Positions 11,768-49,400 of a DNA stretch of 64,000 nucleotides are shown here, one piece after another (the first letter of the stretch is position 1; each line of letters opens with the position of its first letter). A model generated the notes under the pieces. That model was given only the letters and a program-made list of their open reading frames with translations. It was not told the origin of the DNA and searched no databases. The DNA is from a bacterium (lineage in GTDB: Bacteria > Patescibacteriota > Minisyncoccia > Phycocordibacterales > UBA2100). The stretch covers positions 72,052 to 136,051 of the forward strand of contig JAEUQT010000002.1 in NCBI GenBank assembly GCA_016789445.1. Reading direction: 5' to 3'. A program made the translations under genes and the position numbers.

Positions 11768-11769
11768 CC

Positions 11770-22365: not shown

Positions 22366-22367
22366 AA

Positions 22368-23102: not shown

Positions 23103-23105
23103 AGG

Positions 23106-24273: not shown

Positions 24274-24284
24274 GAAAGGTGGAG

Positions 24285-24983
24285 CTACGTGCCGGTAGAG
24301 TCATTATGCTGCGCTGGATGAAAAAGTCGAGGTACCGCTTCCCAATCCTCAAACAAGGCTACAGGTCCCGCTTCTTGAAGCAGGGATATTCGATCTTCAT
24401 CAAGAGCGAAGGGGGCGGGGATGGCAATGACCGAGGATCCAGCCTGGTGTGCTGCTTGTATGCCGACGACTGAATCCTCAAAGACTAGCTGGTCATTTCC
24501 AACTACATGTAATATATGTGCGGTGCGTGCGAAGACCTCTCCCGCGGGCTTTATCTCGCTGACGTCTTCTCGGAATACACATACAGCAGGTGGGAAAAAA
24601 CGATCCAAGCCAGTTTTTATCAGGATATCTGTTCCGAAATCTCGGCTCGTTGTAGAGCCGATGGCTATAGTGCAACCATGTGATAATTGCGACTCGATAA
24701 ACTCTATTAAGCCAGGTCGAGGAGCGAGGGTGGTTGCATTAAACAGTTCGACAAAATGAATTCGCTTGCGCTCTCGAGCAATTTCGAGTTGAAAATCAGG
24801 AAATTTCGACAACATGGCCTGAAAAATAAAACGCGCTCCGCCACCCATTGCGTTTGGCAGCCTGGCAATTTCAAGAGGAGACATGATGATGCCTTGTTCG
24901 GCGAAGGCTTGGGAATATGCTGTGAAATGAATTTCTTCCAAGTCGACACATGTGCCTTCCAGGTCGAATGCGACACCTTTCAT
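24285..24983 (-). CDS. HAD-superfamily hydrolase (subfamily IA-like phosphatase)
   Basis: Start at MKGVAFDLEGTCVDLEE (DxD motif I), with later SVVGIQAAHQAGSSVIAI-type motifs. The longer ORF to 25190 overlaps the divergent gene, so the internal start was chosen. Confidence 0.5.
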   Translation of the reverse strand: MKGVAFDLEGTCVDLEEIHFTAYSQAFAEQGIIMSPLEIARLPNAMGGGARFIFQAMLSKFPDFQLEIARERKRIHFVELFNATTLAPRPGLIEFIESQLSHGCTIAIGSTTSRDFGTDILIKTGLDRFFPPAVCVFREDVSEIKPAGEVFARTAHILHVVGNDQLVFEDSVVGIQAAHQAGSSVIAIPAPFALDEDRISLLQEAGPVALFEDWEAVPRLFHPAQHNDSTGT

Positions 24984-25059
24984 AGCGGAAGAGTGCAATG
25001 CATCACGAAAGAATGCAAGGTGAAATGGACGACGAGGGCGAGCTCTGTATACTGGCACG

Positions 25060-25962: not shown

Positions 25963-26486
25963 GCGGAAACAATCCTCTCAATCTGCCGTGTCGTCGAATG
26001 GCGACCGGTATGGCGGATCAGCTTCACTTTCCCGCCGTAGGAGGCGACGATTGCGCCTTCGGTAATCTCAGCAAGAGAGCGATCGGATCCTTTCACGTGG
26101 ATATCGGGCCTCACCTTCTTGATCCACGGATCAGGCGTGTCCGATGAGAATATGAATACATAATCGACGCACTCCAGGGCGGACACCATGAATGCCCGTT
26201 CCTTTGCGGGAACGATCGGGCGGAGCTTGCCTTTATAGCGTCGTACTGATGCATCCGAATTAACGCCCACAATAAGCACATCACCGTGCTTCTTTGCTTC
26301 AATTAAGCTGTGTACATGTCCGGGATGCAGGAGATCAAATGTGCCGTTGGTGGTGACTATCAGCATGCCGTTGCTGCGGAGATTCTGTACTTTGCGCGCT
26401 ACTGCAGCAATGCTCAGTATCTTAGGGGAGGTGAGGCTCGGAGCCATATAGATCCGCATCATAGGTGCGTCCCAGGCTTTATTCAA
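25932..26486 (-). CDS. Cytidylyltransferase-like nucleotidyltransferase (RfaE domain II-like heptose-1-P adenylyltransferase)
   Basis: NGTFDLLHPGHVHSL is the (H/T)xGH motif of the cytidylyltransferase superfamily, preceded by an IAAVARKVQNLRSNG region as in HldE domain II. The true start may be an internal Met. Confidence 0.55.
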   Translation of the reverse strand: MNKAWDAPMMRIYMAPSLTSPKILSIAAVARKVQNLRSNGMLIVTTNGTFDLLHPGHVHSLIEAKKHGDVLIVGVNSDASVRRYKGKLRPIVPAKERAFMVSALECVDYVFIFSSDTPDPWIKKVRPDIHVKGSDRSLAEITEGAIVASYGGKVKLIRHTGRHSTTRQIERIVSAYRDKKPESK

Positions 26487-26545
26487 GCGTTGGTCGGGTG
26501 GTACGCCTGATGCTATAGTGAGGCACTTACGTTTGACTGAAATAC

Positions 26546-27517
26546 ATGGCTGATTTTTACTCCGGCAAGAAGGTGTTGGTAACGGGAGGTGCTGGATTTA
26601 TCGGCAGCCACACAGTTGAGATGCTGGTTGAACGTGGTGCCGATGTTACGGTGCCGGTACGCTCGACGACAAGCCAAGATTTCCTTAAAGACGTCAAGGG
26701 TCAAATTTCGATCATTGAATCTGATCTCCGAGATCGAAAAAAGATTGAAGAACTGATGCAAGGGAAAGACATTGTCGTCAATCTTGCTGCAGCCAAAGGA
26801 GGTGGCATCGCGCACAGTATGCGACACCATGGCAGCTTGTTTCGAGACAACATGGAGCCGTTCCTTACGGTACTCGATGCGGCGCGGGTCGCGGGAGTCG
26901 AGCGCTTCCTCGTCGTTAGTTCTGCATGTGTGTATTCTCGAGAAGCAAGTGATCATGCTGTTGAGTCGGACGGATTTGTGGGTGTTCCAGAAGCCGCGAA
27001 CGCGGGATATGGATGGGCGAAGCGTATGGAGGAATATCTGGGACAGGCATACGCTGAGGAATTCGGCATGAAAATTGCAATTGCGCGTGCCTACAACGCC
27101 TACGGTCCTCGTGACGCATATTTCGCCGAGTACAGCCATGTGATCCCAAGTCTCATTCAGCGTATTTTCCGTGGAGACAATCCGCTGACTATCTGGGGAA
27201 CCGGTACACAGACTCGTTCGTTTGTATATTCGACCGATTTCGCTCGAGGCATTCTTGATGTGTGTGAAAAATATCCCGTCGCTGACCCCTTGAATATCGG
27301 CAGTGACGAGGAGATATCGATAGCTGATCTCGCCCGGCTCCTGATTGAGATTTCAGGAAAAAAGATAGATATCGAATTCGATACGTCGAAGCCTGATGGT
27401 CCGATGCGTCGGAGTGCTGATATGTCGAAAGCGTTCGAGAAGATAGCATTCAAGGCTCACATGCCGTTGCGTGAGGGTCTTCAGAAGTGTGTAGATTGGT
27501 ACAGAGCCCACATATGA
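26546..27517 (+). CDS. NAD-dependent sugar epimerase/dehydratase (extended SDR)
   Basis: VLVTGGAGFIGSHTVEML Rossmann motif and the YGWAK catalytic motif. 323 aa. Confidence 0.65.
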   Translation: MADFYSGKKVLVTGGAGFIGSHTVEMLVERGADVTVPVRSTTSQDFLKDVKGQISIIESDLRDRKKIEELMQGKDIVVNLAAAKGGGIAHSMRHHGSLFRDNMEPFLTVLDAARVAGVERFLVVSSACVYSREASDHAVESDGFVGVPEAANAGYGWAKRMEEYLGQAYAEEFGMKIAIARAYNAYGPRDAYFAEYSHVIPSLIQRIFRGDNPLTIWGTGTQTRSFVYSTDFARGILDVCEKYPVADPLNIGSDEEISIADLARLLIEISGKKIDIEFDTSKPDGPMRRSADMSKAFEKIAFKAHMPLREGLQKCVDWYRAHI

Positions 27518-28179
27518 GTGTCACCTTGATCGCGGCAACATTGAATGAGCTTGAGGCCGCTAAGGTTGTTTTGCCGCGTATTGATCGATCGGTCGTTGAT
27601 GAGATTATTGTCGTCGACGGCGGATCAACAGACGGCACAGTTGAATTCTGTGAATCGCAAGGGTACACGGTGTATCGTCAGAAACAGCGCGGATATGGAT
27701 CTGCAATGCGGGAAGCCTCTGCTCTCGCAAAGGGCGATCTTATTATCGAATTTCCGCCGGATGGGAATTCGCTTCCCGAGAAGGTTCCTGATGTAGTGAA
27801 AAAACTTGAAGAAGGGTACGATCTCGTCATTGCATCACGGTACGCGCCGGGTGCACGGAGTGATGATGATGATTTCCTCACCGGCATCGGGAATTGGGGA
27901 TTCACGTTTGTCACTAATCTGTTGTTCTGGAGCTCGTATACCGACGTCTTGGTGGGTTTTCGTGGATACAGGAAGTCGGCGCTTGAGAAGGTGCGTATGG
28001 ACGCACCTGGCCTTGAATGGTCCATCCAGATGCCCATTCAATTCCGCAAGCATCGTCTCCGCACTGCTGATATTCCGGCTATTGAACCAGCGCGCATCGG
28101 TGGCGTGCGTAAGATGCGTCCGTTCAGGACGGGGTGGCGAATACTGAAGCTTCTCATTCGTGAGCGGTTTGCCCTATAA
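27514..28179 (+). CDS. GT2 glycosyltransferase (polyprenyl-phosphate sugar synthase-like)
   Basis: Start at the ATG in an ATGA overlap with the previous stop. It carries IIVVDGGSTDGT and DLVIASR motifs. 221 aa. Confidence 0.6.
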   Translation: MSVTLIAATLNELEAAKVVLPRIDRSVVDEIIVVDGGSTDGTVEFCESQGYTVYRQKQRGYGSAMREASALAKGDLIIEFPPDGNSLPEKVPDVVKKLEEGYDLVIASRYAPGARSDDDDFLTGIGNWGFTFVTNLLFWSSYTDVLVGFRGYRKSALEKVRMDAPGLEWSIQMPIQFRKHRLRTADIPAIEPARIGGVRKMRPFRTGWRILKLLIRERFAL

Positions 28180-29447
28180 TGCCTGCCATGTATACGAATA
28201 TCTCCCGTTGCCGGATCTGCGGATCGGATACCCTGGTCGACGTCTTGGATTTAGGCGAACAATTCCTGTCGTCGTCGTTCGTCAAGAATAATCTCGAAGA
28301 GCCGCTCGCAAAAGCTCGAGTCCCACTTACGGTCCTTTTGTGTTCAACGTGTGGCCTGGTACAGCTCCGACAGACCGTCGATCGTGATCTCATGTATCGC
28401 AGTTACTTCTATCGTTCGGGCGTGAATCCTATGATGCGGGATGCTCTTGCGGATGTGACGCGAGATATAAAGGCGCATGCGGGCTTGCAGGAGGGAGATT
28501 CCGTGCTCGATATTGGCTGCAACGATGGGACTATGCTGACGTACTACCCGATCACGATGCGACGTATCGGCATGGATCCGGCCCAGAATATAAACCGCGA
28601 TTCGCTCGATCCTTCGATCACCGTCATTCAGGATTATTTCTCAGCAGAGAAGGCGCGCACTGCGAACGAGGGTGCACTCTTCAAGGCAGTGTCGTCTATC
28701 GCAATGTTCTACGATTTAGATGATCCAAACGCCTTCGTCTCGGAGGTGAAATCGGTCCTTGCGCCTCGTGGTACCTGGTGCGTGCAGCTCAGTTATCTTG
28801 CTACCACGGTCGAGACGATGAATTTTTACGACATTTGTCACGAACATCTTCTGTACTACTCCTTGCGCACGCTTAAATTCCTCATGGAAAAGCACGGACT
28901 CAAGATCATCGACGCATCGCTCAATGACGTCAACGGAGGAAGTCTACGGTTCTTTGCGGTACATGCTGACGATCCGCGTGAGCCATCCGATGCACTCCGT
29001 GCGATTGAGGCAACCGAAGAAGTACTTGCGCTCGAAGAGAAGGCGACCTACGACCGGTTCGCGGCGTCCATCCAAAAGCTCAAGGACATTACGGTGGACT
29101 TCATTGAGAAAGAGCGCGCTTCAGGCGGTACCGTAATCGGCCTCGGCGCGTCGACCAAGGGCAATGTTCTTTTACAGTATTTCGGTATTACCAAGGAGAT
29201 GCTCCCGGCCATCAGTGATCGTTACGCCGAGAAAGTAGGTCTGCGTACGCTCGGGACGGATATTCGTGTCGTCTCCGAAGAAGAGGCTCGTGACATGAAG
29301 CCGTCCGCCATGCTCGTTCTCATTTGGTTTTTCAAAGAGGAACTCTTGAAGCGTGAGCGGCAGTATCTTGAAGGGGGTGGGAAGCTCTATTTCCCGATGC
29401 CGTATCCACATGTCGTCACCAAGGACGGTGAGGTGAGGCTTGATTAG
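28179..29447 (+). CDS. C-methyltransferase-like SAM-dependent methyltransferase with N-terminal Zn-ribbon (paralog 2)
   Basis: 422 aa. CRICGS...CSTCGLVQL zinc-binding domain followed by VLDIGCNDGT. It is collinear with the 12482-13750 protein (same length, same motif order). Confidence 0.6.
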   Translation: MPAMYTNISRCRICGSDTLVDVLDLGEQFLSSSFVKNNLEEPLAKARVPLTVLLCSTCGLVQLRQTVDRDLMYRSYFYRSGVNPMMRDALADVTRDIKAHAGLQEGDSVLDIGCNDGTMLTYYPITMRRIGMDPAQNINRDSLDPSITVIQDYFSAEKARTANEGALFKAVSSIAMFYDLDDPNAFVSEVKSVLAPRGTWCVQLSYLATTVETMNFYDICHEHLLYYSLRTLKFLMEKHGLKIIDASLNDVNGGSLRFFAVHADDPREPSDALRAIEATEEVLALEEKATYDRFAASIQKLKDITVDFIEKERASGGTVIGLGASTKGNVLLQYFGITKEMLPAISDRYAEKVGLRTLGTDIRVVSEEEARDMKPSAMLVLIWFFKEELLKRERQYLEGGGKLYFPMPYPHVVTKDGEVRLD

Positions 29448-29448
29448 C

Positions 29449-30225
29449 CTATTCCGCTTTCTGTAGCGCCCACCATTGTTTCAGGGAAAGCGATTCATCC
29501 TTCGCATATCGCGAATCCTTGAGAAATAGTTCTTCTGCGATCATGCGAATGTGCGGCACCGATTGTTGGTGTTCTGTATATTCGCTGAAATTGTATATCT
29601 TGCGATAGAAGTGCCACTGACTGAGGCTGCGTTTCAGATTTGCTTTAAGGAATGAGAGCGTCCATTGCATGTCGTCGAGAAGAAGGTAGCCACCTGGCTT
29701 GAGAAGCCTATCTGCAAGGAGTATTGCTGGCAGATCGATATAGAACGTATGGTGACCATCGATATAGATCACTTCGTATTGTTCTCCGGATTTCAGCATC
29801 TCAAACAGAGTCCATGCATAGGTTCCAGTAGAGTTTGGTGCAAAACGGATCCGTGTCTGATCTATCTCTTTTAACGCGAGCTCCACTTCGTGACTTTTAC
29901 ACACGCTCTCGAAATCGCAGCCAACATACGAGATGTCCATATCGCGCATGAGCGCGAAGCGTTCAGCGCGAGGGAATTCACCGATACCGACCTCGAGGAA
30001 TTTCCCTCCAGGAATGCGAGCAAGAATTTCACAGATGCGGTCTTCTTTACGCCCGCGAGGGTCATCAGCGAGCGTGTCAATTGCGGGAGAAGCGGTGTGT
30101 CGTACCTTGAATGCAAGCCATAGTGGCAGGTGTGCAAGATGGGCGATTTTCTTCCCTATACGTGTCCGGAGCCAGATAAGGGCACGTTTCGGGCCCAGGG
30201 AGATAACTCGTTGGATGGATTTCAT
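29449..30225 (-). CDS. Class I SAM-dependent methyltransferase
   Basis: 258 aa with FLEVGIGEF (motif I) and an acidic motif II downstream. Confidence 0.5.
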   Translation of the reverse strand: MKSIQRVISLGPKRALIWLRTRIGKKIAHLAHLPLWLAFKVRHTASPAIDTLADDPRGRKEDRICEILARIPGGKFLEVGIGEFPRAERFALMRDMDISYVGCDFESVCKSHEVELALKEIDQTRIRFAPNSTGTYAWTLFEMLKSGEQYEVIYIDGHHTFYIDLPAILLADRLLKPGGYLLLDDMQWTLSFLKANLKRSLSQWHFYRKIYNFSEYTEHQQSVPHIRMIAEELFLKDSRYAKDESLSLKQWWALQKAE

Positions 30226-30298
30226 GCCGGTGGCTCCGGTATTCTCTCATGCCCCGAATTTCGCGCCACCCCGACACTGAGTGCTATAATCCTGTCCT

Positions 30299-31444
30299 GT
30301 GGAACCTGACGAGTCACATGCGATGAGTGCCGTGCCGGCGAGCGAGAAAAAATGGTTTTTCATCGCGTACCTCTTCTGCATATGTGCGATAGGAATCGGG
30401 GCAGCTTTGATACTGCCGCGCGTTATGGACGGTGATGCGGTTGGGTATGCACATGCCATACAGGTGTACCAGGGAACCATACAGCTCCATATCCCGCCGG
30501 GTCTCACCGAGAATACTCTTGATGTTGTTGCTGCACACCGCATCCTCACGACGTTTCTCGGTATAGAGGCTGTTCGTATCTTCTCGGAAATCTTCGGCTC
30601 CTTGATCGGAGGGTGGATGATATGGAATACCCTCCTCTTTTTCGGTGTATCGATAGTGTTTTATCGTCTCTTAGAACGTTTTTTCCAAAGCGCTAAAGTC
30701 GCATTCGTGGGCGGTCTTTTCTTGGCGGGGAACTATTCGGTGGTGGCTCAAGGCCTCGCGCTCTTTATGGATATGGGCGGCTGGTTCTTCTATCTGCTCT
30801 CGATCTACTGGCTCTACCGATATATCGAATCAGAGCGGTATCGTGACGTGTTTTTCGCCGCATTGGCGATAGCGATAGGCGGTTTCTTTAAAGAGAATTC
30901 GTTCGTCGCGTTCATTCCGATTGGGCTCGTGCTTCTCTATGAGAACTATCGAACTCCTTTTCGCTATTTGAAACGAGTTGTTCCACTCGGCCTGTTGGTG
31001 GTGGTTCCCATGGCGATTCTCCACATCGGCGTCTATCTCAAATACGGATACGTCTACACGTACTGGATCCGCCTGGCGGGCACTTTCGTCTACCCGTCTA
31101 TCATCGTCGAGTACATTAAAAGTTTCGGATCGCTCTTGAATTTCCTGGTCCCGGTTGCATTGGCGGGGGCGATAATTTTCCTTCGCGGCGGATATCCTAT
31201 TGATGCGAAACGCAAGATATTCCTCGGCGGAGTCGTGCTTTCAACGATTCCTGCGGTGATGTGGCCGGCTATAACCCAGCGCGTTCTTTTCTTGGTTGTG
31301 CCATGGGTGATCATTCTTGCTGGATTCTGCATCAAACGATACGAACGCTACTGGTATGCATTTCTGCCGATTCTTGCCGTATATATTCTTGCGGCGTTCA
31401 CCATGGACTCGTTTATTCTCGATTTCGTGAATCTGCCGATCTGA
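30299..31444 (+). CDS. Polytopic integral membrane protein (possible GT-C-like glycosyltransferase or polymerase)
   Basis: 381 aa with about 10 hydrophobic segments and no recognisable soluble domain. Located in the glycan operon. Confidence 0.4.
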   Translation: MEPDESHAMSAVPASEKKWFFIAYLFCICAIGIGAALILPRVMDGDAVGYAHAIQVYQGTIQLHIPPGLTENTLDVVAAHRILTTFLGIEAVRIFSEIFGSLIGGWMIWNTLLFFGVSIVFYRLLERFFQSAKVAFVGGLFLAGNYSVVAQGLALFMDMGGWFFYLLSIYWLYRYIESERYRDVFFAALAIAIGGFFKENSFVAFIPIGLVLLYENYRTPFRYLKRVVPLGLLVVVPMAILHIGVYLKYGYVYTYWIRLAGTFVYPSIIVEYIKSFGSLLNFLVPVALAGAIIFLRGGYPIDAKRKIFLGGVVLSTIPAVMWPAITQRVLFLVVPWVIILAGFCIKRYERYWYAFLPILAVYILAAFTMDSFILDFVNLPI

Positions 31445-31446
31445 AC

Positions 31447-32541
31447 ATGAAGCCTACTGTGCATCTCGCGTATACGGCTCCTTTTGGACCCACACTGGTA
31501 CGGCGGGGGATCGATAAGGCATTGCGTCTTGCGCATCTTCCGCCGCTCTATCGAAGTGGTCAGGATTTCTTAATACCGTGGCAGCATCCGATTCGTGCGC
31601 CGCACAGCATCACGTACCAACTCTTGCACGCGATCCGGGATCGAGGATACCCTGTGCGACTCTATAGTCTGTATGAGCACGGAGTGGCACCAATGAAAAA
31701 AGGGGATATATTCATCGGCCAGCCGCTGCCTAGTAAGGGAATGGGGCAGAGGCGATCGCTTGACGACGATCCGCTTTCAGTTACTTCGCGAACGTTGCGC
31801 GAATTTCCCAGTCCAAGAAATTTTATACTGATGCCATACGCTCACGATACTGAATATTCCACGTTCGCGAAAAAGCTTATCGCTGAAAATAATGCTACTG
31901 GAGGAGGTGCGATATTCATCGGCGGCGATATCTGGCAGCGGGACTGGGAAACGAAATCGCCGTATGCGGATCTCGGTCACTTGCGAAAAACACATATAAC
32001 TGCAATGGGTATCGATCCGGCCGAATATCCTCTTGTAAAAAAAAGCTTCAATCAGAAAGGAAAGCGACGATATCTATATATAGGGCATACAGCCTGGTAT
32101 AAGAACACCGCTGAATTAGAGAGAATTGCAGAACGAATGCCTCAGTTTGAATTTGGACATATCGGAGGAGGGTCGGTACGAGGGTGGAAAAAGATAGCGG
32201 ATTTCGCGACTCTGACACCTGCATACATGGCTCGTCTTGCTAAGGAATATGACATATTTGTTACTGTGAGTACCGCTGATCCTCAAGCTACTACTATCGT
32301 TGAACAGATGTGTTTCGGATTGGCGGTTGCGTGCACCTCTGAGACCGGGTATGAGTATGACACAGTCACGCGATTGTTTACCGCTGATACGGATGCGAAC
32401 GTGCGAATACTCACTGCTCTCCAAGACTTGGAAGAAGACGAGCTCATTTCATTAGCTCGGCAGAACCGCGAAATTGTTGAAAAAAAACATAGCTGGCAAC
32501 AGTTCGTGAGCTGCGTTCTCGATTTTGCTGGAGTGGCTTAG
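31447..32541 (+). CDS. Hypothetical protein, possible glycosyltransferase
   Basis: 364 aa starting at MKPTVHLAYT, 3 bp after the previous stop. The C-terminal half loosely resembles a GT-B C-domain (YLYIGHTAWYKNTAEL). Confidence 0.35.
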   Translation: MKPTVHLAYTAPFGPTLVRRGIDKALRLAHLPPLYRSGQDFLIPWQHPIRAPHSITYQLLHAIRDRGYPVRLYSLYEHGVAPMKKGDIFIGQPLPSKGMGQRRSLDDDPLSVTSRTLREFPSPRNFILMPYAHDTEYSTFAKKLIAENNATGGGAIFIGGDIWQRDWETKSPYADLGHLRKTHITAMGIDPAEYPLVKKSFNQKGKRRYLYIGHTAWYKNTAELERIAERMPQFEFGHIGGGSVRGWKKIADFATLTPAYMARLAKEYDIFVTVSTADPQATTIVEQMCFGLAVACTSETGYEYDTVTRLFTADTDANVRILTALQDLEEDELISLARQNREIVEKKHSWQQFVSCVLDFAGVA

Positions 32542-32583
32542 TATTGACAGTGCCTCTAGACCCGTCGATGATTCACATACCAT

Positions 32584-33186
32584 ATGACTGCCGACAGGAA
32601 TACAGCTTTCATCAATTCCGCAATGAAGAGCGTAGGCAAGAGGAAAGGTGTGGTTCTGGATGTTGGAGGAGGGGAGCGGTTCGGGAAATGGCTCTCACGA
32701 TACAAGAGTGAATTTGAGGGTTGCGATTACAAGACGTTCGATTACGATGCATCGACGGGGGCTGACATCGTCGGGGACATCCACAAGATGCCGATCGCTG
32801 ATGGGTTCTGTGATGCGATCATTTGTTCCTCTGTTCTTGAGCATGTGCGAGATCCTCTGACTGCAATGTCGGAGCTTCGACGCATCCTTAAAGACGGCGG
32901 GAAGATATTCCTGTATGTCCCTTCGATATACCCCTATCACGCACGCAAAGGGCACTATCCTGATTACTGGCGGTTCTTTGATGACACACTGTTGGAGCTC
33001 TTCAAGGGATTTTCTGATGTGCGAATCGAGAAGCGAGGAGGATATTTCTTCGCGCTCTCGTTCTTTGTCCCGATGCAGCACAAGATGCGATGGTTCTTGA
33101 ACCCTGTCGCTGACCTTCTCGATCGGCTATTTCAGACTGAAAAGCGCACAACCACCTCCGGATATTACGTATTGGCTACGAAGTAG
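32584..33186 (+). CDS. Class I SAM-dependent methyltransferase (Methyltransf_11-like)
   Basis: [11 protein letters not shown] motif [10 protein letters not shown] and [10 protein letters not shown] downstream motifs. 200 aa. Confidence 0.55.
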
Positions 33187-34108
33187 CGGTTTCAGCGAAC
33201 CATCGATAGGTATCGACGAGGCCTTGAGGAAGCGCAATGGCGTGGCGCCAGCCGAGGGAGTGTATTTTGCTAACATCGAGGCGTTTGCGAGGGGTGCCGT
33301 CGGGTTTTGAGGTGTCCCAGACGATATCGCCATTGTAGCCAATCGTGGTCTTGATGAGTTCGGCCAATTCCTTGATGGTCACGTCTTCGCCGGTGCCGAC
33401 ATTGATGATCGAAGGATCGTTGTAGGTCTCCATAAGAAAGACGCAGGCACTGCCCATATCGTCGACATGGAGGAATTCGCGCATGGGGGCGCCGCTGCCC
33501 CAGACAGTGACTGAGGGCGCATTCGACACTTTTGCTTCATGGAAGCGGCGCAAAAGGGCGGGGAGGACGTGGGCGCGTTCGAGGTCGAAGTTGTCGTTCG
33601 GGCCGTACAGGTTGGTCGGCATGACGGAGATGAAATTCGAACCGTACTGGCGACGGTAGGCATTACACATCTCAATGCCGGCGATCTTGGCGATCGCGTA
33701 GGCGCTATTGGTATCCTCGAGTGGGCCGGTCATGAGGTATTCCTCCTTGATCGGCTGGGGGGCCATCTTCGGATAGATACAGGAGCTGCCGAGGAAAAGG
33801 AGTTTTTTCACGTCGCTTGCATGGGATTGATGGATGACGTTGGTCTGCACGACGAGGTTCTCGCGGATGAAATCAGCGGGGTAGGTATTGTTGGCCATGA
33901 TGCCGCCCACGCGTGCCGCCGCCAGAAAGACATACTCAGGCTTTTCTTTCTCGAAGAAGTCGCGTACTGCCTCGGCGTCCATGAGTTCAAGCTCCGCATG
34001 GGTTCGAGTAATGATATTGGTATATCCCTTGCGCGTCAGTTCACGCACGATGGCGGAGCCCACAAGGCCGCGATGACCGGCCACGAAAATCTTTGAATTC
34101 TTTTCCAT
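33176..34108 (-). CDS. fcl: GDP-L-fucose synthase (GDP-4-keto-6-deoxy-D-mannose 3,5-epimerase/4-reductase)
   Basis: [34 protein letters not shown] and LYGPNDNFD are highly characteristic of Fcl/WcaG. The start is taken as [11 protein letters not shown]. Confidence 0.85.
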
Positions 34109-34109
34109 G

Positions 34110-34582
34110 CTATTTGAGGGCACGCAGGGCACCTTCGATGCGTGCTTTCACGTTCGGATGCAGGGAAGGGTCGTCGATCGAAAACCACTGCATCTCGCTG
34201 TGTTGGCTATCCGCATCCGCTTTCTCATCGGCGAGCGTACAGGCGAAGTATACATCCACGGTATGGTAATTCACGCCGTCGAATATCGATGCAGGATTGA
34301 TCTCGTTGATAATGCCGCTGAAGACGAGGTCAGAAGCAGTGCGATCAAGACCGAGTTCTTCTTTGGCGATGCGGCAAGCTGCTTGGACGAGGTCTTCGTT
34401 CTTGTAGAGGCGACCACCGAAGCTGTAGAACTTGCCGGCGTAGGGTTCGTTGGTGCGCTTGCCGAGGAGGATCTTGGTCCTGTCGGGATTAAAAAAGAGA
34501 ACATCCACCGTCACGACGGGGAAGTTCTCCATAAGGCGTCGGTATTCTTCAAGAGGGACGCGGCCGACGATCGGGAATTCGC

Positions 34583-34586
<4 letters not shown>
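34110..34586 (-). CDS. gmm: NUDIX hydrolase, GDP-mannose mannosyl hydrolase-like (Gmm/WcaH)
   Basis: 158 aa with a Nudix box ([23 protein letters not shown]). Its position between gmd and fcl is as in colanic-acid-type operons. Confidence 0.7.
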
Positions 34587-35620
<1,034 letters not shown>

Positions 35621-35711
35621 GGTGGTAGCCAGTGCATGGTAGCTGTGGCGCCCGCATTCCGCAAGGAAAACCTCTTGCATCTCAAGTGGGTGAGGGGCAT
35701 ACTTCCGTATC

Positions 35712-36503
35712 ATGAAGAAAACGAAGACCGTCTCTGAGAAGTGGGTTGCTGTCTCGGGAGGGTTCGATCCTATTCATATCGGGCATGTGCGCATGATGCA
35801 GGCGGCCCGCAAGCTGGGGGATAGGCTCCTCGTCATCCTCAATAACGACCACTGGCTGCGCGACAAGAAGGGTTTTGCCTTTATGCCGCAGAAGGAGAAG
35901 GTGGAGCTCCTCAAATCATTCCCGTTCGTCGACAAGGTGGTGCTCACCGATCACAAGCCAGGCGACCAAGATCGCAGTGTCTCGCGCACACTCCGCAAGG
36001 TGAAGCCGCACATCTTCGCGAACGGCGGCGATCGCGGCAAGGGCAATACGCCGGAGATGGATGTCTGCAAGGATCTCGGTATCACGATGCGTTTCAATGT
36101 CGGGAAGGGCGGTAAAGTGCAGTCTTCCTCGTGGATGATCAATGCCTCAAGTCGTGAGGTGCGCCGGAGCGTGCGCCCCTGGGGCGAGTTCTACGGATGG
36201 GACAGCGGTCAGGGCTGGTATCTGAAGACGCTCTACGTGAATCCGAATAGCCGCCTCTCGCTCCAGTATCACCATCACCGCTCCGAGCGTTGGGTCTTGG
36301 TGCAGGGCGATGCGACCGCGGTCACGATCGAAAAGGGAAAGGAGAAGAAGACCAAACTCAAGGTGGGTGAGACCTTCATCGTGCCGAAAAGAATGCCGCA
36401 CCGCCTCACTTCCAAGAATGGCGGTACGCTCGTGGAGGTCGCGGTCGGCAATTTTGATGAAAACGACATCGTACGCCTCCAGGACGACCACGGTCGCGTG
36501 TAG
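35712..36503 (+). CDS. Fusion: cytidylyltransferase-like nucleotidyltransferase + C-terminal cupin (mannose-6-P isomerase type II C-domain-like)
   Basis: The N-terminus has [12 protein letters not shown], the HxGH nucleotidyltransferase motif. The C-terminus has [20 protein letters not shown] cupin motifs. It is divergent from gmd. Confidence 0.5.
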
Positions 36504-36515: not shown

Positions 36516-38699
36516 ATGGCGCTGGAGAAATTCCTTCGCGGCGTAGCTCTGACGGGAGTATTCGCGCTCCCGTTCGTCGTGTTGTACGTCGCGAATTCCA
36601 TGTTCTTCCCGTTCATTACGGGGAAGAACTTCGCATTCCGCATCATTACCGAGATCGTCTTCGGCGCGTGGCTTGCGCTCGCCTTCATCCGATCCGAATA
36701 CCGACCGCGTAATTCGTGGCTCCTCTGGGCATTCGCGGCATTCGTCGCAGTAATTGGTATCGCTGATATCTTCGGCGTCTACCCAATGAAGAGTATCTGG
36801 AGCAACTACGAGCGCATGGATGGCTGGGTGACCCTGGTGCACCTCTTTGCCTACTTCGTCGCAGCAACCTCGATCCTCAATACGGAGAAACTCTGGCGGG
36901 CATGGTGGCACACCTCGCTCGCAGTATCCGTCGTCGTGGCGTTCATCGGTATCTTCCAATTCATGGGTTTTGTCGGCATCAATCAGGGCTCGACCCGTTT
37001 GGATGCTCGCCTCGGCAACGCAACCTACGCGGCCGTCTACATGCTCTTCCATGTCTTTATCGCGGCGCTCTTTATGGCGCGGCTGTGGGCAGAGAAGGCG
37101 AAGGATAAGGGCTTCTACACCTGGCTCTACGCTTCGATAATTGCCGTCGATTCGTTCGTGCTCTTCTTCTCGGGTACACGCGGTGCCATCCTCGGCATCT
37201 TGGGCGGTGCAATGCTTTCCGCACTCATCCTTATCGTACTTGCGCCGCGTTCGCGTGTCGCATGGCGTGCGGGAACGGCGATCGGCATCTTCCTCGTCGT
37301 CGCGGGCGGTTTCTGGCTCGTGAAGGACCAGGCGTGGGTCCAGAAGATCGAGCCCTTGCACCGTATCGCCACCTTGAATAACGACGGCATCACCATCGCG
37401 CGCGTCCTTAACGCGCAGATGGCGTGGGAAGGCTTCAAGGAGCGCCCGATCCTGGGGTGGGGCCAAGAGAACTACGCGGTTGTCTTCGATAAGAATTATC
37501 TTCCAGCAATGTATGCGCAGGAGCAGTGGTTTGATCGTACGCACAACATCGTGATGGACTGGCTCATCGCCGGCGGCATCTTGGGTCTCTTGGGCTATCT
37601 CTCGCTCTATCTTTTCTCGCTTCTCATGGTCTGGCGATCAGGTGCGTTTGCGCCGTATGAAAAGGCGCTCCTCACCGGTTTCTTTGCGGCGTATTTCTTC
37701 TATCTCGTATTCACGTTCGATAATCTCCTCAGCTATCTTCTCTTCGCATCGATGCTTGCGTATATCACCGTGCGAGCGCAATCGGTGCAGCCACGAGAAC
37801 GCATCGCGGGGCCAGTTGATCCGAAGTATCTTCCGATCGTGGCGGTTGTCGTGCTTATCGGTACGTGGGGCATCGGCTGGTATGCAAATGCAAGCATGAT
37901 CAGTGCGAATAGAACGCTCATCCAGGCGATGATGCCACAGCCGCAAGGCGCTGAACGCAACCTGCAGCTCTTCCAGGAGGCGCTCGCGAAGCCGCGCGCC
38001 GGGCATCAGGAGATTCGTGAACAGCTCGCCCAAGCGGCAATGAGTGCGGTCGGTACCGAAGGTATCAGCAACGACGTGAAGCAGCGTTTCCTTCAGCTGG
38101 CGGTCAGCGAACTCGAAAAGCAGATGCAAGAGGCTCCGCTTGCGGCGCGACCGCCGTTCTTCCTCGGCGTCCTTCTTAATCGCGTTGGTGCATATCCGGA
38201 GGCAAAGATCGCGCTCGAGAAAGCACAGGCGCTCTCGCCGCAGAAGCAGGGAATCATGTTCGAGCTTGGATTGAATGCGGAGGCGCGGGGCGCAAAGGAC
38301 GAGGCGCTCGCGATCTTCAAGAAAGCATACGATCTCGCACCTGCGTCGCATGAGGCAAGCATCAATTACGCAACGGCGCTTCTTCGTGCCGGAAAGGATG
38401 CCGAAGCTGATGAGGTATTGAAGCCCATTATCGAGAAGGGGGAGACGAACGATCAGCGCATCGCGGCGGCGTATGCAGGGCGAAATCGTTTCGATACGAT
38501 CGTCGAGATCTGGACTCGATATGTAGAAGTGAATCCCACGGTTCCTGATGCGCGATTCGTACTTGCCGGCGCATACTACTCTGCGGGCAATAAAGAGAAA
38601 GCGATCGAAGTTTTGGAGGAAACGAAGCGCGCCATTCCGTCTGCTGCAGCGCAGGCCGATGGTCTCATTCAGCAGATTCGCACGGGGAATACTCAGTAG
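36516..38699 (+). CDS. O-antigen ligase/Wzy_C-domain polytopic membrane protein with C-terminal TPR repeats
   Basis: 727 aa with about 12 TM helices. It carries the Wzy_C-like motif GTRGAILGILGGAM and a large external loop. The C-terminal ~250 aa are TPR-like helical repeats (EAKIALEKAQALSP..., KDEALAIFKKAYDLAP...). Confidence 0.55.
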   Translation: MALEKFLRGVALTGVFALPFVVLYVANSMFFPFITGKNFAFRIITEIVFGAWLALAFIRSEYRPRNSWLLWAFAAFVAVIGIADIFGVYPMKSIWSNYERMDGWVTLVHLFAYFVAATSILNTEKLWRAWWHTSLAVSVVVAFIGIFQFMGFVGINQGSTRLDARLGNATYAAVYMLFHVFIAALFMARLWAEKAKDKGFYTWLYASIIAVDSFVLFFSGTRGAILGILGGAMLSALILIVLAPRSRVAWRAGTAIGIFLVVAGGFWLVKDQAWVQKIEPLHRIATLNNDGITIARVLNAQMAWEGFKERPILGWGQENYAVVFDKNYLPAMYAQEQWFDRTHNIVMDWLIAGGILGLLGYLSLYLFSLLMVWRSGAFAPYEKALLTGFFAAYFFYLVFTFDNLLSYLLFASMLAYITVRAQSVQPRERIAGPVDPKYLPIVAVVVLIGTWGIGWYANASMISANRTLIQAMMPQPQGAERNLQLFQEALAKPRAGHQEIREQLAQAAMSAVGTEGISNDVKQRFLQLAVSELEKQMQEAPLAARPPFFLGVLLNRVGAYPEAKIALEKAQALSPQKQGIMFELGLNAEARGAKDEALAIFKKAYDLAPASHEASINYATALLRAGKDAEADEVLKPIIEKGETNDQRIAAAYAGRNRFDTIVEIWTRYVEVNPTVPDARFVLAGAYYSAGNKEKAIEVLEETKRAIPSAAAQADGLIQQIRTGNTQ

Positions 38700-46482: not shown

Positions 46483-49400
46483 TCATACTTCTTCTGGTGA
46501 TGGTTCCGGAGTGGATTCTGGCTCAGGATTTTCATCATTCGGCGGTGTTTCAGACTCTTCGGGAGCATCTTCTGGTGCCTCGGTCTCAGGTGAATCCTCT
46601 GGTTCCGGAGCGGGTTCCTCACTTCCAGTCTCTTCAGGTGGTGTCTCTGATTGGGGTTCATCAGGTGGCTCTTCCGGTGTTGATGCCGGGGTCGCACCGC
46701 TTTGGTTCAGCAGCTGCTGAAGCTCTGCCTTCGTCACGCAAAGATCTTCAAGGCAGAGTTTGTTTGCGTTCACGGTATCCGCATACACGTTCTCCGCACG
46801 CAATGTCTTCGTGAATATCTCCGTGATGCCGTTCTGTGCATCCGCGAGCCAATTGGTCATGCGCGCGAAGATGTTTGCAAAGACAGGTGTAGAAGTTGCG
46901 GTGCTTGTTGCATTCAGAAGATCTCGCAGTGCATTCTTCTCTTCGATCACGAGTGTGTATTCGTTTTCGACGAAGACTTCAATCTCACCAGAGACTGAGG
47001 TTGCCTCAAGTGCGCGTGCAACGGTATACGAAGATGTCGTCGCCTTGGTACCGATACCCGGCACGGATGAGATCGTGAGACGATCGCCGACTGCGATCGG
47101 ACCGCCTTCCATGTTCACTTTAAGTGGTACGCGTCCCTTAAGAGCGACGGCACGACCGTCCTTGATCTCCTGGCCGAGCAAGAGGCCTGGCTTGGTAGAT
47201 AGGACTCCCAATCCTTCTTCGCCGTGCTTCGCGCGGCGGATCGTGGAGGTGGAGTTCTCAAGGAGGGAGACGATCTCTCCTGTGAGGAGAGTTGAATCGA
47301 TGGCGCGGTAGTTTTCGGCAAGGTCGATGTCGCTGATGGTCGCGGTGGTTGCGTAGATGGTGCCGGCGGTGGTGCCACAAGAGCCGGTGCTGCGCACACA
47401 GAGAGAACCTTGGACGGAGAGAGTGGAGACTGGGGTGGTGGTGCCGACTCCCACATTGCCACTCTGGGTAAGGCTCATGATCTCGTTTGCAGTATCACTG
47501 AAGAATCTCAAACGATCATCAGATACCAGGTTATCAATGATCCACTTCCTAGCACCGCTCTCGTAGATCTCCATTCCACTGTTAGCAGAACCGTCGAGGC
47601 GAACGTATGCGTTCGTGCCGCTTACATGCAACTGGCGAAGCGGTGTAGTGGTTCCTATACCGACGTTGCCAGAGGAGTCGATAAAGAGTCGGGTGCTCGT
47701 CGCGCCAGCGGTGTCTGAAGTGAAGAGGCTGAGGCTGCCACCGAAGTTGTTGGAATGGCGTCCTGCATCGATACCGGCAATCTCTTTCTGTGTCGATGGA
47801 TTGCCATCGGTGTTGAAGAAGGAGAGGCCTGCAGCTGTGCCGTTGGTGGTGTTCTGGCGTCCCCATACCGCGATGCGGTTTTTTGCATTGGTGCCGTTAC
47901 CAGAGACGGAGAGCATATACGTTGGCGTCGTGGTGCCGATGCCGAGTCGTTGGTTTGTGGTATCCCAGAACAGCGAAGAAGAAGTGCCGATTGAGCCTGT
48001 GTCGTTTCCGAAAAGGATGGAACCAGAGCTGATCGAGGTAAGGCCGGTTCCGCCATTCGCAACGCCGAGAGCGGATGTCAGGCTGAGTGATTGTGCGGAC
48101 AGTGAGCCCGTAACGGATAGTGCACCTGCATTCTGAGCAGAGACCTCTCCCCATTGCAGGGAGACACCGCGCAACATGATGCCTGCGGGCGAGCTCGGGC
48201 TCATCAGAATGCGGTATTTCATTGAGGTGCCTGATGGTTGTCCCGAAAGATCCACTGCCGTGTCGCCATACAATGTCGAGCCATCCTCAAGTGTAGAAAG
48301 GGCTTGTAGGGTGGTGGTCGACCAGGTGGTGCCTCCATCGCGAGACACGGCTGCGGCGATGTGGGTGTTGAGCGTAAATGCAGCCGTCGAAGTGCCGGCA
48401 AAGAAGAATTTTGCTGTGCTCGGTGATGACGATGCGGTAAAGGTGTTTGAGATAAGGCGAGACGCTCCTGTTCCAGAGACGGTAGTGTAGCGGACGATCA
48501 CAATGCCGTCCGCGCCGGTACCGCCGGTGACTACTGTTGATGCGCCACCGCCCGCGCCTCGTCCGCCGCTTCCCGGCGTTGCTCCGTTGGTTCCGTTGTT
48601 ATTGCCGCTGCGCGTACCACCGGCACCACCACTGGAATACGTGACCGATGTTCCGGAGATGGTGTTTGCAATACCGGTACCACCAGCACCGCCTGCTTCG
48701 ACGCCGTTACCCCCGCCAGAACCGCCTGCACCCGCAGCGCCTCCTCCACCTGCGCCTCCACCGCCGCTTCCTCCGGAGCCTGCATTTCCACCGCTGGATC
48801 CGACGCCAGGAGAAACTGCCGTCGAAGCTCCTCCTGTTGTAGCTGAGGAGTCATCTCCCGCACCGCCACCACTACCGCCGGGTCTACCGTTGTTGAATGG
48901 TTCGGCACCTGCGCCACCGCCACGAGCAGTGAGGCCGAATGCGGTCGTCGTTGCGCCATCGGTATTCGAACCACCGCCGGTGCCGACAGTTATTGCGTAG
49001 GATGTCGCAGGCGTGACGTTGAAGGAACTAATAGCAACATATTCGCCGGCTCCACCACCTCCCGAGCCACGCACGCTTGCGGTGGCATTACCACCGCCAC
49101 CGCCACCGCCGCCAACAACGAGGACTTGTACCGTGCCGACGGCACCGGAATAGAAGGTTCCGTTCGACGTGAATGTGCGGATGCTGTCGCCGCCGGAAGA
49201 GGATGAACTGCCGCCGCTCGGAGCGGCGTCGGGTACCAATGCGATCATGCCTGCGCTTGTCGCGATGCCGCTTGAATTTACGAGATCGATTCCTGAATCA
49301 TCAGCAATCGATGCAGAGCCAAAAGAATCAGCCACGCCGTTGCTAAGGCTGACCCATTTCGCGCTGCTCGATGCGATCTGAAGTGCATTTACGGAAGTAT

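Follow-up and report, generated by a model that had tools for sequence, protein, structure and literature searches.

A conserved Wzy_C-TPR membrane protein bordering a variable glycan island in Patescibacteria is a candidate en-bloc ligase for surface protein O-glycosylation

Introduction

The closest described systems are found in two Gram-positive S-layer glycosylation (slg) clusters. WsfB of Paenibacillus alvei is a predicted O-oligosaccharyl:protein transferase that combines a Wzy_C domain with a C-terminal TPR, while WsaB of Geobacillus stearothermophilus, with the same predicted activity, is accompanied by a separate TPR protein, WsaA; both sit in clusters with Wzm/Wzt, nucleotide-sugar genes and methyl-capped glycans (PMC2943079). 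In Proteobacteria, the PglL, PglS, TfpO (PilO) and TfpM enzymes transfer glycans en bloc from undecaprenyl-PP with relaxed glycan specificity (PMC3643930; PMC9829042). Residues essential for activity, and their roles, have been described for E. coli WaaL (EcWaaL; R215, R288 and H338) and for NmPglL (R224, R298 and H349), and it has been reported that PglL and WaaL are inseparable by simple sequence comparison (PMC3643930). In S. pneumoniae, the lipoteichoic acid ligase TacL, also a Wzy_C enzyme, joins Und-PP-linked teichoic acid chains to a glycolipid on the outer side of the membrane (PMC5727136). TfpW of P. aeruginosa is a GT-C pilin glycosyltransferase (arabinosylation) with a periplasmic TPR. 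The eukaryotic TMTC1-4 proteins also join a protein-directed GT-C core to TPRs on the non-cytoplasmic side.

Here we describe a Wzy_C-TPR membrane protein encoded in patescibacterial DNA of 64 kb, the whole of which is referred to as the window. Compared by described architecture, the protein resembles WsfB and WsaB in pairing Wzy_C with TPR in a single-membrane host (here deduced from taxonomy and literature), and the window contains Wzm/Wzt, GT2/GT4, GDP-sugar and methyltransferase genes, as do the slg clusters. However, unlike wsfB and wsaB, the patescibacterial gene is a fixed clade-wide boundary beside SecA, serving islands of changing content, and, again in contrast to these systems, no recognisable S-layer gene is present within the window. 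With PglL, PglS, TfpO (PilO) and TfpM the protein shares the Wzy_C domain and a conserved His/Arg set, but it differs from PglL-type enzymes in having an extra transmembrane helix and a long TPR array, and its host is thought to be without an outer membrane. It is like WaaL (7TPG) in fold, in R/R/H spacing and in its apparent place as the final step of ABC- and Wzx-dependent pathways, whereas WaaL has 12 transmembrane helices, approximately 400-420 aa and no TPR, as against 727 aa with a 13th helix and TPR, and is usually encoded in the core-OS (waa) locus and not, as here, between a glycan island and SecA. TacL shows that this ligase type occurs in a monoderm; it is, however, a 397-aa protein without TPR that uses a fixed teichoic acid donor, whereas the 727-aa TPR protein described here adjoins a hypervariable island. 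The cores of TfpW and TMTC are ArnT/PMT-like and use polyprenyl-phosphate monosaccharides as donors, in contrast to the Wzy_C core of the patescibacterial protein, although for the TPR of TfpW, as for the patescibacterial one, the best model template is the TPR of OGT. Wzy polymerases have a related polytopic fold, some of them with Wzy_C, but differ in conservation pattern and in ABC co-occurrence.

In Patescibacteria, an outer membrane has been proposed to be absent (PMC12102498), and a lipid A-core acceptor is not expected; Pfam scans of the 64-kb window detected no lpx or waa genes. No paper in the literature searched treats the CPR Wzy_C-TPR family or reports CPR protein O-oligosaccharyl transfer.

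Results

Domain architecture and predicted topology

The start codon (ATG) of the gene lies 13 nt past the stop codon of the upstream gene. The features of the encoded protein are as follows.

36516..38699, + strand: Wzy_C-TPR membrane protein, 727 aa (ORF, Pfam, AlphaFold2; over 3900 homologues share this architecture, far more than chance would give)
36516..37781, + strand: 12-helix membrane core, aa 1-422, WaaL / GT-C fold (AlphaFold2 model of aa 1-475, Foldseek)
37149..37601, + strand: Wzy_C domain, aa 212-362, including a large outward loop, aa 271-344, ahead of TM10 (Pfam, AlphaFold2)
37179..37181, + strand: codon of R222 (SGTRG motif), paired with EcWaaL R215 in the hhalign register; NmPglL R224 is the counterpart
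37401..37403, + strand: codon of R296, paired with EcWaaL R288 in the hhalign register; NmPglL R298 is the counterpart
37542..37544, + strand: codon of H343 (E-x-W-F-D-R-x-H-N), putative counterpart, by spacing only, of EcWaaL H338 and NmPglL H349
37821..37931, + strand: 13th transmembrane helix, aa 436-472 (AlphaFold2, hydropathy, positive-inside loops; predicted topology)
37950..38684, + strand: all-helical TPR array, aa 479-723, about five canonical TPRs and flanking helices (Pfam TPR_19, TPR_14, TPR_2 and others)

The Pfam Wzy_C match (PF04932) scores 66.3 bits (E 3.5e-18; cutoff 31.7 bits) and encloses, at aa 220-229, the sequence GTRGAILGIL, which an earlier note made from the sequence had correctly read as a Wzy_C-type motif. 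The long C-terminal TPR array proposed in the same note is borne out by several Pfam TPR families matching aa ~540-720 and by an AlphaFold2 model of the whole protein (pLDDT 88, pTM 0.85, all helical), in which the TPR-like array begins already at aa 479. The estimate of about 12 transmembrane segments was right in describing a polytopic membrane protein, but not in the count, since the model and the hydropathy profile indicate 13 membrane helices, namely the 12 of the WaaL fold and the extra helix at aa 436-472. Because the 13 helices have positive-inside loops, the TPR array, approximately 250 aa in length, should sit outside the cell, carried across the membrane by the 13th helix. Its sequence and fold matches in the PDB are consensus TPR proteins and the TPR domains of OGT and SPY. 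Mean column identity within the family is highest in the outward loop (0.77), reaches 0.61 in the TPR array and is lowest in the 13th transmembrane helix (0.49).

Fold and invariant residues

In a Foldseek search of the PDB with the model of the membrane domain, the sole significant match was WaaL (7tpg_B; E 4.8e-7, TM 0.56/0.65), followed by RodA (6pl5) with an E-value of 0.018. This likeness is one of structure: in profile searches the solved WaaL gave no sequence-level match (identity 16%), and the hhalign comparison with E. coli WaaL is not significant taken alone, though both arginines pair in it. R222, R296 and H343 are invariant among 55 aligned family sequences. The distance between the two arginines is 74 residues, compared with 73 in WaaL and 74 in PglL, and H343 follows R296 by 47 residues, compared with 50 and 51 in EcWaaL and NmPglL; since the hhalign alignment stops short of H343, we infer the equivalence of this histidine from spacing. 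By analogy with the characterized enzymes, the predicted role of R222 is to bind the lipid-linked donor at its pyrophosphate, and H343 is the predicted catalytic histidine.

Wzy_C was the only match found in all family members scanned (17/17). Neither the target nor any of these 17 proteins matched the PglL_A (PF15864) or Wzy_C_2 (PF11846) models at E <= 1, and no pilin or other obvious acceptor gene directly adjoins the ligase gene; a prepilin motif near the gene was found in one of 85 sources and in none of the sequence of the window. Genes for PglL, TfpO, PglS and TfpM often, but not always, lie beside that of their pilin or target protein. The comparison with the PglL/PilO class drawn in the earlier note is not supported by these results, and simple sequence comparison does not in any case tell PglL from WaaL (PMC3643930). 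Likewise, the O-ag_pol_Wzy, WzyE and EpsG models did not match the target or the family members scanned.

Family range and a fixed position beside SecA

Relatives were found in at least 586 species genomes; those with a name all belong to the Paceibacteria-type Patescibacteria, in keeping with the CPR-like organism suggested earlier. In all 60 loci examined (60/60), the ligase gene lies between a variable sugar island and SecA. In the window, sugar genes fill approximately 1.8-36.5 kb and the SecA gene starts at 39761, downstream of the ligase gene, which is thus the last gene of the glycan island, as had been proposed, with the same boundary in relatives. The related loci examined contain no paralogue near the ligase gene. 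As a separate observation, a conserved hairpin RNA of approximately 85 nt, for which no Rfam family is known, is located at 39016-39100.

The protein retains 50-95% identity between relatives while island content changes, and it is found with either type of export system: Wzx-like genes accompany it in 20 loci and Wzt-like genes in 16, with no locus containing both. Conservation of the ligase gene is thus independent of the export route. These data bear on the idea that the protein is a Wzy-type polymerase, which would perform no ligation but build chains from lipid-linked repeat units on the outer side of the membrane. Wzy_C does occur in some O-antigen polymerases, and the 20 related loci with a Wzx-like flippase upstream have no other recognisable polymerase. 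However, the protein is equally conserved beside Wzm/Wzt islands (16 loci and the window), which require no polymerase, and 50-95% identity in the face of varying glycan genes is the opposite of the behaviour of Wzy proteins, which are confined to Wzx/Wzy-dependent clusters, poorly conserved and variable in step with the repeat unit. Furthermore, no Wzz/PCP gene was found, none of the polymerase models matched, hhalign comparisons with E. coli WzyE and WbbH covered no more than 13-16 columns, and the WaaL fold and the R/R/H triad are those of a ligase. We consider a polymerase function extremely improbable. Because the gene occurs with Wzx or Wzm/Wzt export, stays at least 50% identical and keeps a fixed boundary, the pattern fits a donor-promiscuous en-bloc ligase and not a Wzy polymerase, which agrees with the ligase assignment of the earlier note.

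The variable glycan island

The island upstream of the ligase gene contains the following features.

1782..36503, strand not assigned: glycan island (Pfam scans; contents vary between relatives)
6480-9179: PMT_2 fused to GT4, with a PF02366 PMT match too (Pfam)
13737-15713: PMT_2 fused to GtrA (Pfam)
15735..17797, + strand: Wzm (ABC-2 permease; PF01061, 71 bits) and Wzt (ATPase; PF00005, 83 bits)
30299-31444: PMT_2 (Pfam)
33176..36503, strand not assigned: GDP-sugar block directly upstream of the ligase gene (Pfam scans)
33176-34132, - strand: GDP-fucose-synthase-like epimerase/reductase
34110-34586, - strand: Nudix
34583-35713, - strand: GDP-mannose 4,6-dehydratase
35712-36503, + strand: cytidylyltransferase-like protein with a mannose-6-P-isomerase C-terminal cupin

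Besides GT4 and GT2 glycosyltransferases, genes for a GDP-mannose-derived 6-deoxyhexose and the three PMT_2 GT-C enzymes, the island holds seven methyltransferase-domain genes, two of them for C-methyltransferases. A cytidylyltransferase-like/cupin gene directly precedes the ligase gene in 16 related loci. The Wzm/Wzt pair suggests ABC-transporter-dependent export of a completed polymer; the carbohydrate-binding Wzt_C domain of Wzt is weak (27.2 bits, under the cutoff of 30.4; E 4e-6). An initiating phosphoglycosyltransferase was not found within the window. The island presumably supplies the lipid-linked donor of the ligase.

Ser/Thr-rich giant proteins downstream

Two genes for giant surface proteins are located beyond SecA.

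46483..55833, - strand: giant surface protein 1, 3116 aa (8 STTSA / 9 FSTTS)
60887..64000, + strand: giant surface protein 2, at least 1038 aa, running off the window (14 STTSA, 16 FSTTSA-type units)

Giant protein 1 has an HTH-like N-terminus, one transmembrane segment and an exterior that is 49% T/G/S/A, with nine FSTTS[AN]-x-[YA][WF] units and a weak C-terminal Peptidase_G2/IMC-like match. Giant protein 2 is built in the same way, and relatives have giant genes in syntenic position; a homologue lies approximately 7-8 kb downstream of the ligase gene in about 17-20 related loci. The earlier note had described neighbouring giant proteins packed with STTSA repeats. The giants and their repeats are indeed present; they are, however, 8 and 22 kb downstream of the ligase gene, with SecA, GatB and other genes between. 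That the ligase acts on these STTSA proteins, as was also proposed, draws support from the conserved synteny, but, as far as the available flanks reach, the exact FSTTSA-type motif was seen in just four of 84 related loci, in contrast to the conserved TPR. Because SecA and GatB intervene, the linkage may be mere ancestral synteny, and the giants are candidate acceptors only, tied to the ligase by synteny.

The giants could instead be glycosylated stepwise by the PMT_2 enzymes of the island, using polyprenyl-phosphate sugars made with GtrA/GT2, in which case the ligase would serve another acceptor. PMT-family enzymes O-mannosylate Ser/Thr-rich proteins in Actinobacteria and eukaryotes, small GT2 genes accompany the three PMT_2 genes in the island, and PMT_2/GtrA/GT2 sets recur upstream of the ligase gene in relatives. 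PMT_2 is nevertheless a broad family whose members decorate lipids and glycans too (ArnT, Gtr-type O-antigen modification), and the presence of PMT_2 varies between relatives, whereas the giants and the ligase are conserved. We therefore regard stepwise modification by these enzymes as improbable.

Discussion

In this study, we analysed a Wzy_C-TPR protein that borders a variable glycan island in Patescibacteria. Our preferred interpretation, to which we assign a probability of about 0.5, is that the protein is an extracytoplasmic en-bloc ligase of the WaaL/Wzy_C fold and likely an O-oligosaccharyltransferase for surface proteins. The function as a protein O-oligosaccharyltransferase put forward in the earlier note is upheld as regards the type of ligase, by fold and triad, and finds a precedent in WsfB, with protein as the putative acceptor. 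The note had also reasoned that a bacterium without lipid A-core must use a protein acceptor. This is incomplete, because TacL, a Wzy_C enzyme in a Gram-positive bacterium, ligates teichoic acid onto a glycolipid (PMC5727136), and neither the sequence nor the fold of Wzy_C reveals whether the acceptor is a protein, a lipid or a glycan (PMC3643930).

According to a TacL-like model, the protein would transfer the glycan to a membrane glycolipid, giving an LTA-like polymer or functional LPS substitute, and the TPR would have the polymer or partner proteins as its ligands and no protein substrate. In addition to the precedent of TacL, it is consistent with this model that the nearest solved structure, WaaL, is a lipid-acceptor ligase, that, as a conserved lipid acceptor would predict, the gene is strongly conserved and occurs throughout the clade, and that TPRs are able to mediate protein-sugar interactions. 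However, TacL and WaaL have no extra extracytoplasmic domain, a transmembrane helix followed by a 250-aa TPR has so far been seen in the protein-directed enzymes WsfB and TfpW (and TMTC), and no glycolipid-synthase gene was identified beside the ligase gene. A lipoglycan ligase seems to us unlikely, though more probable than the other alternatives.

The presence of SecA next to the ligase gene in every locus examined might be taken to indicate that the protein is a non-catalytic scaffold, with its TPR docking envelope or secretion machinery, or that it ligates the glycan to peptidoglycan or another wall glycan. TPR proteins do scaffold polysaccharide export elsewhere, and polymers are attached to peptidoglycan in monoderms. 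On the other hand, the catalytic triad is invariant, which points to an active enzyme, and attachment to peptidoglycan is normally carried out by LCP enzymes and not by Wzy_C proteins. We judge a wall or scaffold function very unlikely. The adjacency to SecA may be purely historical.

Returning to the en-bloc ligase, for which transfer to protein is plausible by the precedent of WsfB and TfpW, we infer a topology, donor, chemistry and acceptor along the following lines. The product of the island would be a methylated glycan with 6-deoxyhexose, assembled on a polyprenyl-pyrophosphate carrier and exported by Wzm/Wzt in this genome and by Wzx in relatives. At the outer face of the membrane, R222 and R296 would hold the pyrophosphate of the donor, H343 in the conserved outer loop would activate or position the acceptor hydroxyl, and the outward TPR domain would present the acceptor, onto which the whole glycan would then be transferred. 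The likeliest class of acceptors would be Ser/Thr (or Tyr) residues of exported surface proteins, as with WsfB/WsaB, and the downstream Ser/Thr-rich giants would be candidate substrates. More tentatively, and as a possibility we find doubtful, a clade-wide ligase in Paceibacteria-type CPR, with its TPR as an acceptor arm, might load the strain-specific and often methylated island glycan onto HTH-anchored giants just after their export, in a general O-glycosylation system; the constant presence of SecA beside the gene could then even mean that glycosylation is coupled to Sec-dependent export.

The CPR/Patescibacteria form a large, mostly uncultured share of bacterial diversity and live attached to other microbes. 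The class of enzyme and its architecture are already known elsewhere, and the present work names a concrete candidate enzyme for the study of CPR surface glycans. Across the species genomes with relatives, the border of a hypervariable glycan locus is marked by one conserved ligase gene, which makes the diversity of CPR surface glycans easy to follow in genomes, much as O-antigen loci do in enterobacteria. If the protein is a true O-oligosaccharyltransferase and its donor specificity is relaxed, no earlier one would be known from the CPR radiation; it could explain the decoration of giant adhesin-like proteins and, since it would accept both ABC-exported polymers and Wzx-flipped units, would have potential use in glycoengineering. 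If it builds a lipoglycan instead, CPR cells would bear an LPS-like molecule despite having only one membrane. Should clade-wide O-glycosylation prove true, these episymbionts would possess an exchangeable glycan coat that serves in recognising hosts or evading phages.

Results

The gene at 36516..38699 (+), whose ATG lies 13 nt past the upstream gene's stop, encodes a 727 aa protein that is a member of the Wzy_C/WaaL-fold superfamily by domain, fold and catalytic residues. Pfam Wzy_C matches residues 212-362 (66.3 bits, cutoff 31.7), with the GTRGAILGIL motif noted earlier at residues 220-229, and TPR families of Pfam cover aa ~540-720. In NCBIfam only the TPR part is matched, the membrane part having no subfamily model; a PDB sequence search likewise matched the TPR part only, and a family profile of the membrane domain found no solved relative in the PDB. 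A confident AlphaFold2 model built from 55 homologues (pLDDT 88, pTM 0.85) is all-helical, with 12 membrane helices up to residue 422, then one more long helix (436-472) and, at 479-723, a TPR-like array. The earlier count of about 12 TM helices is therefore corrected to 13, which matters for the topology. The membrane-domain model has one significant fold match, the WaaL O-antigen ligase as solved by cryo-EM (7tpg_B; E 4.8e-7, TM 0.56/0.65); RodA, the second best, is not significant (E 0.018).

Residues R215, R288 and H338 of Escherichia coli WaaL and R224, R298 and H349 of Neisseria meningitidis PglL are essential (PMC3643930). Their counterparts here, R222, R296 and H343, are invariant across 55 sequences and are spaced 74/47, compared with 73/50 in WaaL and 74/51 in PglL; an hhalign alignment with E. 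coli WaaL, non-significant alone, places R222 on R215 and R296 on R288. The outward loop bearing R296 and H343 is the best-conserved segment of the protein, with a mean column identity of 0.77; that of the TPR array is 0.61. The pattern H-N-x9-G-x2-G around H343 presumably agrees as well with the motif reported for WaaL of Vibrio cholerae. If the protein is assumed to be arranged like WaaL (N-terminus inside, large loop ahead of TM10 facing outward), the basic loops 59-69, 191-199, 243-251, 373-383 and 420-435 all lie inside, and the thirteenth helix would carry the TPR array to the outside, beside the active site. The array is similar, in a generic way, to the TPRs with which OGT and SPY bind their substrates.

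A search of 5.8 billion proteins returned more than 3900 homologues. Almost all of the best 120 are full-length proteins (~700-780 aa) that share this architecture, at 48-95% identity; those that a source names are labelled 'O-antigen ligase family protein', their hosts being Minisyncoccia, Paceibacterota, Kaiserbacteria or Parcubacteria. With the membrane domain alone, 1976 clusters at the 50% identity level were matched at E <= 1e-30. Scanning one genome per species placed relatives in at least 586 genomes, and among the matches listed every named record belongs to the Patescibacteria (Kaiser-, Campbell-, Yonath-, Taylor-, Nomura- and Lloydbacteria, with some records labelled Saccharibacteria). 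The source of the window is therefore a CPR bacterium of Paceibacteria type, in line with the CPR-like host that the earlier note considered as one possibility.

Upstream, the window is one glycan-biosynthesis island from ~1.8 to 36.5 kb. Its glycosyltransferases are four of GT4 type and three of GT2 type, several being fusions with other domains. Seven genes have methyltransferase domains, among them two for sugar C-methyltransferases and one for a TylF-type O-methyltransferase. The GDP-sugar proteins are GDP-mannose 4,6-dehydratase, a GDP-fucose-synthase-like reductase and a Nudix hydrolase, and the exporter encoded is of the Wzm/Wzt ABC type, with a weak Wzt_C carbohydrate-binding domain in its ATPase. 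A cytidylyltransferase/cupin gene adjoins the ligase gene on its upstream side. Genes for a Wzx flippase, a Wzz co-polymerase or an initiating phosphoglycosyltransferase were not found within the 64-kb window.

Fusion, PMT_2 and C-methyltransferase genes of the island
3507-5438, GT4+UDP-glucose/GDP-mannose dehydrogenase fusion
6480-9179 (+), PMT_2 (GT-C) protein 1, an unusual GT4+PMT_2 fusion, 899 aa
9183-10595, methyltransferase+GT2 fusion
12242-13750, sugar C-methyltransferase
13737-15713 (-), PMT_2 (GT-C) protein 2, an unusual GtrA+PMT_2 fusion, 658 aa
28179-29447, sugar C-methyltransferase
30299-31444 (+), PMT_2 (GT-C) protein 3

Taken together, the PMT_2 proteins and the fusions represent a second route of extracytoplasmic glycosylation in the island, one that depends on polyprenyl-phosphate sugars. 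A block at 19330-26486 encodes a Zn-alcohol dehydrogenase, TPP-dependent E1 alpha and beta, a PfkB kinase, an FkbM methyltransferase, a HAD phosphatase and a cytidylyltransferase. This block and the two sugar C-methyltransferases suggest that an unusual sugar or polyol, branched or CDP-activated, is synthesised.

The four loci with called genes share one order, namely a variable sugar island, the Wzy_C-TPR gene, SecA, GatB, an HTH-anchored protein and a giant protein, and their islands differ in content (NeuB/sialic-type genes, GtrA/GT2/PMT_2 sets, GDP-mannose genes, Wzx or Wzm/Wzt). Across 84 related loci the genes upstream of the ligase are variable, and SecA follows on the same strand in all 60 that reach far enough downstream; GatB comes after SecA in 33, the HTH-anchored protein in 30 and a giant-protein homologue in ~17-20. 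In the 58 loci that extend 8 kb or more upstream, a Wzx-like flippase is found in 20, a Wzt-like ABC ATPase in 16, both in none, and a second Wzy_C gene in none. In L003, the locus of an 86%-identical relative with an island otherwise collinear with the window, a Wzx-type flippase (Polysacc_synt) at 1766-3031 (-) takes the slot that in the window holds a small methyltransferase-like gene at 29449-30225 (-). The mutual exclusion of the two exporters and this exchange suggest that the export module is swapped inside the island.

A Wzy polymerase was weighed against a ligase. ABC-type islands need no polymerase, and the gene is equally present and conserved beside ABC-type and Wzx-type islands, its product staying 50-95% identical while the sugar genes turn over. 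It therefore behaves as a donor-promiscuous ligase, a kind that includes WaaL and PglL, and this constancy rules against a polymerase. Polymerase-specific Pfam models matched neither the protein nor the 17 relatives tested, and hhalign with E. coli WzyE and WbbH aligned 13-16 columns only. We conclude, with a probability of about 0.8, that the protein is an en-bloc ligase of WaaL fold serving the adjacent island.

The 1-kb gap between ligase and SecA (39761-42313) holds a further element. At 39016-39100 (+), nucleotide identity with the equivalent site in dozens of genomes is 85-94%, compared with only 40-55% for the proteins of those genomes. Its 36 distinct copies align as a ~85-nt hairpin with an almost invariant core (GGCGGCGGCACUCACA...UUUGGAGCUCGCACCCG) and an outer stem whose pairing is kept through compensatory double substitutions in 18 of 30 pairs. 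A covariance model found exactly one strong match (50-102 bits) per source in 54 of 85 sources, always between ligase and SecA and on either strand relative to these genes; the opposite strand of the hairpin scored only 25-33 bits, a strand-specific signal. A tRNA or tmRNA was ruled out and no matching family was found in Rfam 15, and the hairpin looks like a candidate new small structured RNA family of Paceibacteria. Two partial copies of its 3' half (CCTGCGCTGTGGGTCTTTT) lie at 39232-39262 and 39302-39335 (+), the former within a hairpin at 39232-39299 that is an almost perfect palindrome and has an outer stem of 14 bp (GCTCGCACCCGTCC...GGACGGGTGCGAGC). About 80 nt past the ligase stop (~38781-38803), a further GC hairpin, followed by a T-run, looks like the ligase terminator.

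After SecA come an insertion-like stretch, GatB, small HTH-anchored membrane proteins and giant 2, which is open at the window end. The stretch, with an IS200-like transposase fragment and giant 1, is an insert of ~14 kb (42314-55833) relative to two related loci, L001 and L002, in which GatB directly follows SecA.

Genes of the insert, and giant 2
42314-43813 (-), secreted Cys/Ser/Thr-rich protein, 499 aa
44595-45323 (+), IS200-like Y1 transposase fragment
45777-46346 (-), Ser/Thr/Pro-rich protein with C-terminal wHTH
46483-55833 (-), giant 1, 3116 aa
60887-64000 (+), giant 2, at least 1038 aa, running off the window, same build as giant 1

Giant 2 sits where relatives also carry a giant gene. 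Each giant combines an HTH-like N-terminus in the cytoplasm with a single TM helix and an exterior in which Thr, Ser, Gly and Ala abound, and the earlier description of the giants as STTSA-repeat proteins is correct. Units of the type FSTTSA-x-[YA][WF] occur in 9 copies in giant 1 (aa ~500-760) and 16 in giant 2 (aa ~500-1040), and owing to their regular period of ~15-17 residues and conserved aromatic positions the array has the look of a structured repeat, such as a fibre or solenoid, rather than of a disordered linker of low complexity, which bears on the units as possible PglL-style acceptor sites. An N-terminal HTH_17-like segment of ~50 aa (e.g. ...YISAxxAAxxxGYxxDYIxxLxRxGKIxxxxxGxxWYV...), followed by a linker, one TM helix and the protein bulk outside, is common to four proteins (46483-55833 (-), 57802-58962 (+), 59070-59780 (+) and 60887-> (+)); found also in relatives, it looks like a clade-specific cytoplasmic anchor module.

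Discussion

It has been proposed that Patescibacteria have no outer membrane (PMC12102498), and it is well supported that such a ligase is present in a CPR bacterium presumed to have none. The earlier note went further and proposed a protein O-oligosaccharyltransferase (O-OTase) acting on the Ser/Thr-rich giants; the ligase in a CPR host stands, a protein acceptor is plausible, and the giants as substrates are speculative. We give the enzyme an even chance of being a protein O-OTase. The Wzy_C proteins WsaB and WsfB are predicted O-oligosaccharyl:protein transferases of Gram-positive S-layer glycosylation clusters; WsfB has a C-terminal TPR and WsaB an adjoining TPR protein, WsaA, and the clusters hold wzm/wzt, with O-methylation capping the glycan and thought to be recognised by Wzt (PMC2943079). 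The window shares these ingredients (Wzy_C, TPR, wzm/wzt, methyltransferases), and such clusters, as the closest described systems, would favour a protein acceptor. TfpW and, in addition, TMTC1-4 are GT-C enzymes with extracytoplasmic TPRs that act on proteins, a precedent pointing the same way. So do the four described O-OTase families, which all carry Wzy_C and a required His (PMC9829042), and the membrane-anchored Ser/Thr-rich surface proteins downstream in the window and in relatives.

Against a protein acceptor it counts that protein and non-protein acceptors are inseparable by Wzy_C sequence (PMC3643930), that the PglL-specific model PF15864 and Wzy_C_2 match neither the protein nor any of 17 relatives, and that pilin genes were not found near the ligase. 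The argument that no LPS implies a protein acceptor fails by itself, because TacL, a Wzy_C enzyme of a monoderm, ligates its polymer to a glycolipid (PMC5727136). It also counts against a protein acceptor that the FSTTSA-type motif, with 26 copies in the window, is present in only 4 of 84 related loci within readable flanks while the TPR array is conserved (0.61), that the linkage of ligase and giants may be inherited synteny since housekeeping genes lie between them, and that the three PMT_2 enzymes of the island offer another route to Ser/Thr glycosylation. That the giants are substrates seems rather unlikely to us.

Among named systems, WaaL proper was set aside on the architecture and context of the protein, which do not fit, and on its acceptor, which is probably absent from the host; the PglL family was set aside by the published HMM criterion, PF15864 and Wzy_C_2. 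TacL is built differently, and a Wzy polymerase would not stay constant beside changing islands. Compared by description, the protein is most like the WsfB/WsaB-type O-OTases, in architecture as well as context.

The Wzy_C plus TPR architecture and the O-OTase idea were already known, and the protein is a CPR-wide addition to a known enzyme class; no paper dealing with a CPR Wzy_C-TPR ligase family was found in the literature searched. What is new here is that the gene constantly marks the boundary of a hypervariable glycan locus in hundreds of Paceibacteria genomes, independent of the export route. Although the enzyme class is expected and the architecture known, the ligase provides a useful, testable handle on CPR surface glycobiology.
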